Shown here in pieces: positions 9,364-12,239 of a DNA stretch of 12,239 bases. Location of the stretch: IMG/VR virus record IMGVR_UViG_2671180458_000003; one strand, written 5' to 3'. The notes below the pieces were generated by a model. That model made no database searches, was not told the origin of the DNA, and saw only the letters and a program-made list of their open reading frames with translations. Both the position numbers and the translations under genes were made by a program. How positions within the stretch are numbered: the stretch's first letter is position 1; each line of letters opens with the position of its first letter. Source of the stretch: a virus (lineage: Duplodnaviria; Heunggongvirae; Uroviricota; Caudoviricetes).

Positions 9364-9914
9364 CCCTCACTCCGCATCAGCGCGCCCTGTTGCAGTTGCT
9401 GCCTGACGGACTGGCCTGGGACAAGCGGCCGTCATCCGTACTGGCTGCGTTATGCCTTGGCCTCAGCCATTCCACCGAACGTGTTGCATGGACGGGAAAA
9501 CAGCTGCTGGCAGAACGTTTCCCTGACAGTTCCCGTCTGCTTCTGGAAGACTGGGAGCGTTATCTCGGCCTTCCCGAGTGTGATATGGCCGGAGCCACCA
9601 TCACAGAACGACAGCGTTATGCCGGGAATAAATACCGGATGAAGCCTTCGCTGAACCGTGAATTTTATATCAGGTTTGCGGCAGAGTTTGGTTATGAAAT
9701 AGATATTCAGCCATCACCGGATTCACAGTGGGTCAGTATTGTCACGATAAACAGTGAAACCGGCTACCGGAATATGAATGTGCTGGATGATATTCTCACG
9801 CCGCTGCGTATTTATGAGGGTGGTGCGCTGGAATGTATTCTGAACCGTTATAAGCCTGCATGGCAGACGTTTATTTACGTGTATGCAAACAGTCACGAAG
9901 AGGAGAATATTTAA
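9354..9914 (+). CDS. tail/baseplate protein, Mu gp48 / P2 gpI-like (DUF2313, YmfQ-type)
   Basis: 186-aa ORF overlapping the J-like stop. Motifs LLPDGLAW and [10 protein letters not shown] match what I remember of the YmfQ/gp48 family. Lies immediately before the tail fibre gene. Confidence 0.65.
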
Positions 9915-10825
9915 TGTTCCATGTTGATAATAATTCCGGCGTGGCGAATATGCCTGAACTGGCTCCGGCGCAGAGTAATACCACCACCTGGTTTACCGAG
10001 GGGGACGGACAGAAAGGTATCAGCTGGATTGGTCAGGACTGGCTGAATATTCTCCAGGCCGAACTGCTGAATATTCTGGCTGAAGCCAGTATTCAGCCGG
10101 ATAAGGCGCAGTTAAACCAGCTTACGCTGTCCATTAAAGCCATTATCGCTGCGAATGCTTTTTCCCGGAAAAATAACCTGAAAGAAATTGCTGATGCCGG
10201 TGCGGATGCTCAGCGTCTGGCCCGTGGTTATCTTGGTCTGGGGACGCTTGCCACAAAAAACAGTCTTGGTCCCGGTGACGTTAATGCCCTGGCGAAGGTT
10301 CAGAATCTCGCCGACCTGGAGAATAAGGGAACCGCCCGTAATAATCTGGATGTTTACAGCAAGAGCGAAGGTGATAACCGTTACCTGCGCAGGGAGCAGC
10401 ACGGCGCAGACATTCCGAATAAAGGGGCTTTTATCGATAACCTCGGTTTACGGGAAACGGTAAACAGGGCTGCAAATGCCCTGCCATCGAATGGTACAGC
10501 CGTAGCGGCAAACAAGCTGTCTGCGGCACGTAAAATTAATGGTGTTGCGTTCGATGGCACAAAAGACATCACTATTACATCCGGTATGACCCAGGCTACA
10601 GCAGACGGCAGATATGTTCGTAATGTGCAACTTGGTGCTCAGAGCCGCCACTCTCCTGCGGGTAATGAAGTCACCTGGGATTATAAAACACCAGCAGGTT
10701 GTATGCTTTCCGGTATTCATGTACAGGATACCGGCTCCCGGTCTGCGGATAATATCGGTGGGGTCTATTATCGCCCGGTTCAGATTTATATTAATAATGT
10801 CTGGAGAACGGTGAGTTCAGTGTAA
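9914..10825 (+). CDS. tail fibre protein: constant N-terminal part (9914-10443) fused to the currently expressed variable C-terminal cassette (10444-10825)
   Basis: 303 aa from ATG 9914 (AGGAG 8 nt upstream, TAATG overlap with the previous stop); the track ORF 9860 is a spurious upstream extension. The N-terminus [15 protein letters not shown] is of the Mu S / e14 tail-fibre type as I remember it. The gene is interrupted internally by a gix-like crossover site at 10431-10456. Confidence 0.8.
10431..10456. other. gix/pix/hix-like 26-bp invertase crossover site (left)
   Basis: TTATCGATAACCTCGGTTTACGGGAA. Its reverse complement TTCCCGTAAACCGAGGTTATCGATAA closely resembles Mu gixL as I recall it (TTCCTGTAAACCGAGGTTTTGGATAA), with a central GA dinucleotide at 10443-10444. 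Lies inside the tail-fibre ORF at the constant/variable junction. Confidence 0.7.
10441..10560. repeat. left inverted repeat of the invertible segment (pairs with 11590-11709)
   Basis: Hand alignment of the reverse complement of 10441-10560 against 11590-11709 gives 96/120 identities, rising to about 90% or more in the ~50 bp next to the crossover site. Both copies encode nearly identical peptide (NLGLR[E/D][18 protein letters not shown]...INGVAFDGT). Confidence 0.75.
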
Positions 10826-10835
10826 ACCACAGAAA

Positions 10836-10854
10836 AGGGTGCTGAATGCACCCT
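10836..10854. terminator. hairpin between convergent genes (candidate bidirectional intrinsic terminator)
   Basis: AGGGTGC-TGAAT-GCACCCT, a 7-bp perfect stem with 5-nt loop, 10 nt after the fibre stop and 5 nt before the minus-strand assembly-gene stop. T-rich flank on the minus-strand side (TTTCTGTGGT). Confidence 0.4.
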
Positions 10855-10859
10855 CTGAA

Positions 10860-11256
10860 TTATTCCGGTTTTTCCGGCCAGGAAATCGCCTGGTAATGCC
10901 TCTCGCTGGCAATATCATTAAGGTGCATTTCTTTAAGCTGTCGGATATACGCCATCCAGCGCGTCAGCTTTAATTTATTTTCATCGCTAATCATGTCCAG
11001 TTTTAATTCTGTTTTCCAGTCATCCACGGTTCCGTTGGCCTCCTGGAGCAGCGATGAACGGCGATTTTCAGCAACCGTATTCCAGTTTACCGGCACCTTT
11101 GATATCAGGCCATCAGAAAACTGCCAGTTACCGTCAATATTCACACCTTCCGGCAGTTCGTCCACTTCAACAACAGTAAAACCTGCCGGATATAAAGCAG
11201 AGACATCTTCAGCAACAGAGCAGATAATGCCCGTTACAGGCGAAATACAGAGTTTG
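10860..11256 (-). CDS. tail fibre assembly protein (Tfa / Mu U-like), N-terminus lost in the N-gap
   Basis: 132 visible codons ending at stop 10860-10862. Carries Tfa-type motifs (GIICSVAEDVSALYPAGFTVVEV, MISDENKLKLTRWMAYIRQ, C-terminal WPEKPE). The reading frame runs into the N run at 11257. Confidence 0.7.
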
Positions 11257-11410
11257 NNNNNNNNNNNNNNNNNNNNNNNNNNNNNNNNNNNNNNNNNNNN
11301 NNNNNNNNNNNNNNNNNNNNNNNNNNNNNNNNNNNNNNNNNNNNNNNNNNNNNNNNNNNNNNNNNNNNNNNNNNNNNNNNNNNNNNNNNNNNNNNNNNNN
11401 NNNNNNNNNN
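11257..11410. other. run of 154 N (assembly gap or masked sequence)
   Basis: Literal n characters in the sequence. It lies inside the invertible segment and hides the junction between the alternative fibre cassette and the assembly-gene 5' end. Confidence 0.95.
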
Positions 11411-11705
11411 CACCACCACGCATTTCCCAGTCTCCGTCAGTCTTAAAACCGGTAATCACATTTCCTGATGACAGGGAGTAATTATATTCCAGTCCACCGC
11501 TTAATGCCTGCGCTCCCAGTCTTACCCCTGTAACATAACGCTGATTGGCCGTTGATTCCGGCATTCCTGACGTAATGTTTATATCCTGCGTGCCGTCAAA
11601 GGCGACACCATTGATTCTGCGGGCATTTGCCAGCCTGCTTGCTGCAACAGCCGTACCGTTTGATGGCAGGGCATTCGCGGCCCTGTTTACCGTATCCCGT
11701 AAACC
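11411..11705 (-). CDS. promoterless alternative tail-fibre C-terminal cassette (Sv'), 3' end lost in the N-gap
   Basis: Minus-strand frame is open from the right crossover site (codons [24 protein letters not shown]...) through ...QRYVTGVRLGAQALSGGLEYNYSLSSGNVITGFKTDGDWEMRGG into the gap. The first ~38 aa are near-identical to the plus-strand fibre after its crossover site, then the sequence diverges. No start codon or SD of its own at the 5' end; the track's Met at 11564 is internal. Confidence 0.7.
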
Positions 11706-11709
11706 GAGG
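11590..11709. repeat. right inverted repeat of the invertible segment (pairs with 10441-10560)
   Basis: See left repeat: about 80% identity over 120 bp by hand alignment. It gives rise to a mirror-image spurious ORF (11545-11760 +). Confidence 0.75.
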
Positions 11710-11719
11710 TTTCAGGGAT
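11694..11719. other. gix/pix/hix-like 26-bp invertase crossover site (right)
   Basis: ATCCCGTAAACCGAGGTTTCAGGGAT. It shares the inner half-site and core (TCCCGTAAACCGAGGTT) with the left site in inverted orientation; the outer half-site differs. Central GA at 11706-11707. Lies 55 bp upstream of the invertase ATG. Confidence 0.7.
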
Positions 11720-11773
11720 GCCGTATATCTGCTTTAAAAGGCATTTTCACCTCTTTTTAAGGAAGGTAAATAC

Positions 11774-12216
11774 ATGCTTATTGGCTATATACGCGTATCA
11801 ACAAATGATCAGAACACAGGTTACAAAGAAATGCGCTGGAATGTGCAGGATGTGAGCTGATTTTTGAAGATAAAATGAGCGGAAAAACAACGCAGCGGCC
11901 GGGACTGAAGCGGGCACTGAAGAAACTAAAACCCGGTGACACGCTGATGGTCTGGAAACTGGACAGGCTGGGGCGCAGTATGCGCCACCTTGTTGCGCTG
12001 ACAGATGAATTACAGCAACAGGGGATAAATTTTCGTAGTCTTACTGACAACATTGATACGTCAACCCCCATGGGGCGCTTCTTTTTTCACATAATGGGTG
12101 CGCTGGCAGAAATGGAGCGTGAATTGATTGTCGAACGGACACGGGCTGGTCTTGCAGCTGCCCGTGAAAGGGGACGAACCGGCGGCAGACCCCGTCGTCT
12201 CACGCAGGAACAATAG
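11774..12216 (+). pseudogene. Gin/Pin/Cin/Hin-family serine DNA invertase, reading frame disrupted (frameshift near 11817-11821; ORF also ends early at 12216)
   Basis: ATG 11774 with AGGAAGG SD gives MLIGYIRVSTNDQNT, the invertase N-terminus with catalytic Ser at position 9, then runs out of frame to a TGA at 11858-11860. The frame one nucleotide back continues LQRNALECAGCELIFEDKMSGKTTQRPGLKRALK...GRFFFHIMGALAEMERELIVERTRAGLAAARERG, collinear with Gin/Hin as I remember them. That frame stops at 12214-12216 (TAG-TAA), about 40 codons short of a typical invertase and before the C-terminal HTH. Confidence 0.65.
11866..11932. promoter_or_regulatory. putative Fis-dependent recombinational enhancer inside the 5' part of the invertase gene
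   Basis: Two Fis-like 15-mers (G-N13-C with an AT-rich centre): GAAGATAAAATGAGC at 11866-11880 and GAAGAAACTAAAACC at 11918-11932, centres about 52 bp apart. Gin/Hin enhancers are known to lie within the first ~150 bp of the invertase gene. Pattern match only. Confidence 0.25.
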
Positions 12217-12239
12217 TAAGCGTAAACTGACCGCCGTAT

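Follow-up and report, generated by a model that had tools for sequence, protein, structure and literature searches.

A 154-nt N run in the invertible fibre segment of a Mu-like prophage of E. coli as a probable gap placeholder of underestimated length

Does a run of Ns inside an invertible phage segment reflect a property of that segment, or only the place where an assembly was broken? The DNA analysed here (hereafter the window, a stretch of 12,239 nt) contains a single such run, exactly 154 nt long at positions 11257-11410, and no other N. The run sits in the unique interior of an invertible tail-fibre segment, 668 nt from its left repeat arm and 151 nt from its right one, and the nearer of the two recombination cores is 284 nt away. 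The original prediction, made from the sequence alone, had described this run as the window's sole one and had placed it within an invertible segment, and both its coordinates and its position inside the segment were confirmed. As explained below, the run is an assembly artefact, not biology, and by comparison with related genomes it stands for 317 nt.

An invertible tail-fibre segment

In the window we recognise the tail module of a Mu-like prophage of E. coli, which encodes a DUF2635 protein, sheath, tube, tape measure, a DNA circularization protein, baseplate proteins and a Gp48 homologue, and then a fibre of 303 aa. Its classification as Mu-like rests on Mu-type Pfam families, which were found both in the tail genes of the window and in the upstream head genes of its relatives. 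These relatives were gathered via the window's exact tape-measure and DNA-circularization proteins, which led to 20 further loci. Positions 1-905 form a mosaic boundary, in which the DUF2635 gene and the 5′ part of the sheath gene occur in two allele classes among the relatives (81 aa and 500 aa versus 76 aa and 493 aa). The classes are about 75% identical there, whereas the rest of the module is 97-99% identical.

The fibre gene (9914-10825, plus strand) has a constant part that extends to about position 10438 and a variable tip, Sv, that starts at 10439, within the segment. The segment is bounded by two inverted-repeat arms of 150 nt each, the left at 10439-10588 on the plus strand and the right at 11562-11711 on the minus strand, which are 77% complementary. 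Their outer ends carry an identical 17-nt core, AACCTCGGTTTACGGGA, at 10439-10455 and 11695-11711, with a gix-like site at about 10433-10458; we take this core to resemble the gix site of Mu. Outside the core, the arms are only 77-80% identical.

Three relatives (L011, L016 and L019) carry 10439-11711 in the opposite orientation, with the switch beginning at 10439. In two of them (L016 and L019) the segment is 100% identical to that of the window, but reversed. The alternative fibres share an N-terminus and have lengths of 303 aa (Sc+Sv) and 298 aa (Sc+S'v). The existence of the opposite orientation thus indicates that the segment is genuinely invertible, in the manner of the G segment of Mu. 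In common with Gin/Din-type systems (Mu G, P1 C, e14 P), it has an adjacent serine invertase gene, inverted recombination sites at both ends and representatives in both orientations. It departs from them in one respect: instead of one assembly gene per tip, the segment contains a single Caudo_TAP gene, tfa.

The alternative tip, S'v, is visible at 11411-11711 on the minus strand, where 100 codons plus 1 nt can be read before the gap, starting at the right recombination site. S'v is without a start codon of its own, and is predicted to be expressed only after inversion, as the C-terminus of the 298-aa fibre. Translation of the flipped locus L016 gives a 298-aa Sc+S'v protein, and a 298-aa gene was called in both L016 and L019. 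Sv and S'v appear to be homologous over their full length when the two translations are read side by side. In the complete genome NZ_CP027366, PGAP also annotates a 61-aa 'hypothetical protein' (WP_001499193.1) at about 11575-11760 on the plus strand, antisense to S'v and across the right recombination site, which is probably a spurious call.

The segment is asymmetric. In the flipped state, tfa follows S'v with a spacer of 121 nt between them. In the state found in the window, tfa is convergent with the fibre gene (34 nt separate the stop codons), and no chaperone gene follows that of the 303-aa fibre. The sole convincing hairpin that we found is a terminator-like stem at 10834-10856, between the convergent stops of Sv and tfa.

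The arrangement is best compared with the G segment of phage Mu and its Gin system (S, U, U', S'), as described in PMC4406740. In both cases, the segment contains the alternative C-terminal tips of the fibre but not its constant part, short inverted recombination sites form the boundaries, and a serine invertase gene is located immediately downstream. The prophage is itself Mu-like, and both orientations are found in nature. However, the segment in the window is about 1.44 kb long (1273 nt plus 163 nt), whereas that of Mu measures 3 kb. It also has a single assembly gene, located after S'v, with no equivalent of U after Sv, and the invertase gene in the window is a pseudogene.

The true distance across the N run

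Both flanks of the N run align without rearrangement to 17 of the relatives' loci, in which they are collinear. Wherever both 40-nt flanks are present, as they are in these 17 loci, they are exactly 317 nt apart. The hidden 317 nt are identical in 16 of these loci, and differ by a single SNP in the remaining one. Nine of the relatives (L012, L013 and L015-L021) are extremely close to the window, with at most two mismatches and one 1-nt indel over about 11.2 kb. All nine are gap-free draft short-read assemblies with zero N. Two of them (L015 and L017) also carry the unusual IS66 junction found at the right end of the window, and are thus independent assemblies of the same lineage.

Complete genomes agree with this distance. 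The closest of them, NZ_CP027366, is 100% identical over both flanks and has 317 nt opposite the 154 N of the window. Among the matches listed, the complete E. coli genomes with a full match to both flanks (H93-H104) extend over 914 nt for a 751-nt query, a difference of +163 nt. A version with 154 nt was found neither in the 17 loci nor among the complete genomes listed. A search of a phage collection returned only two partial matches, which are Mu-like inserts in Stx phages. The 34-nt left flank had no exact match in collections of viral, genome and metagenome contigs, so that for this isolate both the sequence and the nature of the gap are read from its relatives.

Since the distance between the flanks is invariant in the relatives, the comparison indicates that the placeholder stands for 317 nt, not 154, and that the N run falls short of the true length by 163 nt. 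The original prediction had raised the possibility of a gap larger than 154 nt, and this is borne out by all 17 relatives, of which nine belong to the lineage of the window. In practical terms, coordinates to the right of 11410 run 163 nt too low with respect to the real genome, and the missing sequence can be filled from the sibling assemblies with high confidence.

Sequence hidden by the N run

We replaced the N run with the corresponding sequence of L017, giving a reconstruction of 12,402 nt. On the minus strand, the hidden sequence begins with the 3′ end of S'v, 71 nt made up of 2 nt, the final 22 codons and the stop codon, so that the C-terminus of S'v reads ...YYRQIQYCINGHWVSAASI*. An AT-rich, non-coding spacer of 121 nt follows between S'v and tfa. 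The last part consists of the first 125 nt of tfa, which are codons 1-41 plus 2 nt. Codon 42 straddles the boundary of the gap, and the first 42 residues of the protein are MQLINVKRYYPKDKPYGEDVQYFQSEDGRDFYESIPLFTKKY, as read from the ORFs in L001. It had been proposed beforehand that the gap hides about 45 N-terminal codons of the chaperone along with the 3′ end of the fibre tip. Both parts of this proposal agree well with what was recovered here: 41 codons and a further 2 nt for a Caudo_TAP protein of 173 aa, and the end of S'v. The spacer, which accounts for most of the extra length, had been overlooked.

The visible 3′ three-quarters of tfa (10860-11256, minus strand) start with the last base of codon 42, continue through codons 43-173 and end with the stop codon at 10860-10862. 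The coding part amounts to 394 nt at 10863-11256, or 131 codons plus 1 nt, compared to a previous count of about 132 assembly-protein codons. The visible 131 aa already match the Caudo_TAP family (PF02413) with 67.2 bits, and the reconstructed protein of 173 aa does so with 66.3 bits (cut-off 22.1). In NZ_CP027366, the gene is annotated as 'tail fiber assembly protein', with 173 aa.

The length of the N run also has consequences for gene prediction. An ORF of 234 aa at 10860-11564 (minus strand) begins at a Met inside S'v and continues through the N run into tfa; the 154 N are distributed over 52 codons and give about 52 X. In gap-free relatives, the stop codons of tfa and S'v are 643 nt apart and the genes are in different frames, whereas in the window the stops are 480 nt apart and the frame is shared; the stop codon of S'v is concealed by N codons. 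The wrong gap length therefore places tfa and S'v in one frame, and the 234-aa ORF is an artefact. This spacing of the stops corroborates the original description of the ORF as an artificial fusion, and the ORF should be discarded.

No Rfam family matched the reconstructed region at E<=1. A promoter scan found 3 sites where 2.6 are expected by chance, and gave no support for a promoter of tfa's own in the spacer. Judged by their genes and spacer, the hidden 317 nt contain nothing unusual and, once they are filled in, the segment reads as an ordinary Mu-like invertible fibre switch.

The spacer is, however, the site of a change in another genome, which raises the question of whether the source of the window differs in structure from its relatives. 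In STEC2018-553 (L022, NZ_CP075665), an IS1A element (L022 1345-2112) interrupts the spacer of 121 nt that separates S'v from tfa, with an 8-bp target duplication at reconstructed positions 11439-11446, inside the hidden stretch. A private change of this kind in the source could be an IS insertion, which would make the gap larger than 317 nt, or a deletion of 163 nt, which would make 154 the exact length. A related possibility is a length-preserving mask, and the description of the genome_contigs collection does state that a few stretches in it are masked as N.

Several observations make such a change very unlikely. If an IS had been inserted, the contigs would normally reach into the IS ends, as they do at 12216-12239. 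Relative to the IS1 site of STEC2018-553, the window additionally lacks 183-190 nt to the left and 127-134 nt to the right, and an IS insertion in the source was judged unlikely on account of this missing unique sequence on both sides. With regard to a shorter exact length, the two gene ends together (125 nt of tfa and 71 nt of S'v) require 196 nt, so 154 nt is impossible as the true length unless one of the genes is truncated. A length-preserving mask, in which the number of N would equal the number of bases replaced, is likewise contradicted by the relatives: every one of them has 317 nt, and the gene ends exceed 154 nt. The original prediction had named a deliberate mask of exactly this length as the finding that would speak against it, and the 317 nt in all relatives argue against such a mask. 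We attach equally little credence to a broader version of this idea, according to which the sequenced isolate truly differs from its relatives, or is heterogeneous, within the AT-rich spacer that precedes tfa (through an IS1 insertion or a deletion, for example). The spacer would then be a recurrent target, and its disruption would alter expression of the chaperone in the flipped state.

Origin of the gap

The features described above resemble those of a scaffold gap, that is, an N run of estimated length. The N lie between blocks that are collinear with gap-free relatives, their odd number is unequal to the true distance (154 N versus a real 317 nt), and a spurious ORF was called across them. 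Nothing sets the run apart from other gaps of this type; the estimate is in this case 163 nt short. We consider it very probable that the N run is a placeholder of underestimated length with which two contigs were joined in a draft assembly, where the hidden 317 nt are known from the relatives and the role of read coverage is what we infer.

In this explanation, two contigs from a draft assembly of an E. coli-type genome with a Mu-like prophage would have been joined by an N placeholder. The AT-rich hidden stretch probably led to a drop in read coverage in one library, and this drop to the break. Our best guess is that read pairs bridged the break, but that the distance between the contigs was underestimated, which would have resulted in 154 N. 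The base composition is consistent with these steps. The G+C content of the hidden stretch is 38%, compared to 56% in the window overall, and the 150-nt interval with the lowest G+C in the 12.4-kb reconstruction (34.7%) falls inside it. Only 9 of the 12,086 intervals of 317 nt have a lower G+C content than the hidden stretch, and all of them overlap it. As the hidden stretch is the regional G+C minimum, a drop-out in coverage would be the likeliest cause of the break. On the other hand, nine sibling assemblies cross the stretch without trouble, which speaks against an AT bias as the cause.

The original prediction offered another cause, namely that a mixture of segment orientations in the sequenced population, or else the inverted repeats, could have disrupted the assembly. 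The segment does invert in this lineage, as the flipped L016 and L019 with their identical segment and also L011 demonstrate, and an invertase encoded by a different prophage can act on such a segment in trans (PMC12529663). However, mixed orientations would fork the assembly graph at the two cores, and the gap is instead located in the unique interior. The limited identity of the arms outside the cores (77-80%) means that they are not confusable repeats, and the invertase gene of the window carries a frameshift and is interrupted by an IS. Furthermore, the nine sibling assemblies cross the region without a gap in either orientation, L016 and L019 being flipped. The position of the gap and these contiguous assemblies contradict the suggestion, and we regard it as highly improbable.

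A near-repeat elsewhere in the same genome, such as a second prophage with a similar tfa, could also have caused a contig break. The first 116-125 nt of the hidden stretch, which are the 5′ end of tfa, are 94-97% identical to the tfa of other prophages, and similar tfa 5′ ends occur in up to 4 places per genome. The visible part of tfa is likewise shared with other places (H144-H149, among the matches listed). Yet the median number of tfa-like near-repeats is one place per genome, and sibling assemblies are contiguous across the supposed site of the break. Moreover, the shared block is the whole of tfa, so a gap caused by it should span tfa, rather than its first quarter together with 192 nt of segment-specific sequence. 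A repeat-induced break was rejected for this poor fit to the gap boundaries; we consider it improbable, if somewhat less so than a mixture of orientations.

An underestimated placeholder between two joined contigs thus remains the explanation that we favour. The N run should carry no biological claim, and its value is practical. More interesting than the gap itself are the double inactivation of the invertase, the flipped siblings and the presence of a single chaperone gene for two homologous tips, unlike in Mu.

An inactivated invertase and presumed inversion in trans

The gene immediately downstream of the segment (11774-12215, plus strand) is a pseudogene of a Gin-type serine invertase. It matches the Resolvase family (PF00239) with 134 bits, and carries the PGAP label 'frameshifted'. 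Intact alleles of 186 aa with an HTH_7 domain are present in relatives, and alignment with them identifies the lesion as a deletion of 1 nt in a T run between 11820 and 11821, which changes GGTTTAC to GGTTAC. The 3′ end of the gene is cut at 12215, where it is interrupted by the terminal 24 nt of an IS66-family element (12216-12239, plus strand). In L017, 126 nt of the same IS junction match beside an IS66-like tnpA, which is multi-copy in 2956 genomes. Because of this element, draft contigs of the lineage typically end at 12211-12215. The invertase of the window is thus doubly inactivated, by the frameshift and by the IS66-family insertion.

Nevertheless, the flipped siblings L016 and L019 share the deletion allele of the window, which indicates that at least one inversion took place after the frameshift. 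From the shared allele, inversion was presumably carried out by a recombinase supplied in trans from another prophage. A precedent is provided by the P segment of e14 (stfE/tfaE, tfaP/stfP), which is inverted by PinE and, in trans, by PinQ, and invertases of other prophages can likewise act in trans (PMC12529663). Like the segment in the window, the e14 segment is a small invertible tail-fibre segment of an E. coli prophage, with both orientations among sequenced genomes. It differs in having two tfa genes, compared to one here. In e14, inversion by a recombinase encoded elsewhere is described (PMC12529663), whereas for the segment in the window we infer it from the flipped siblings with the same frameshift allele.
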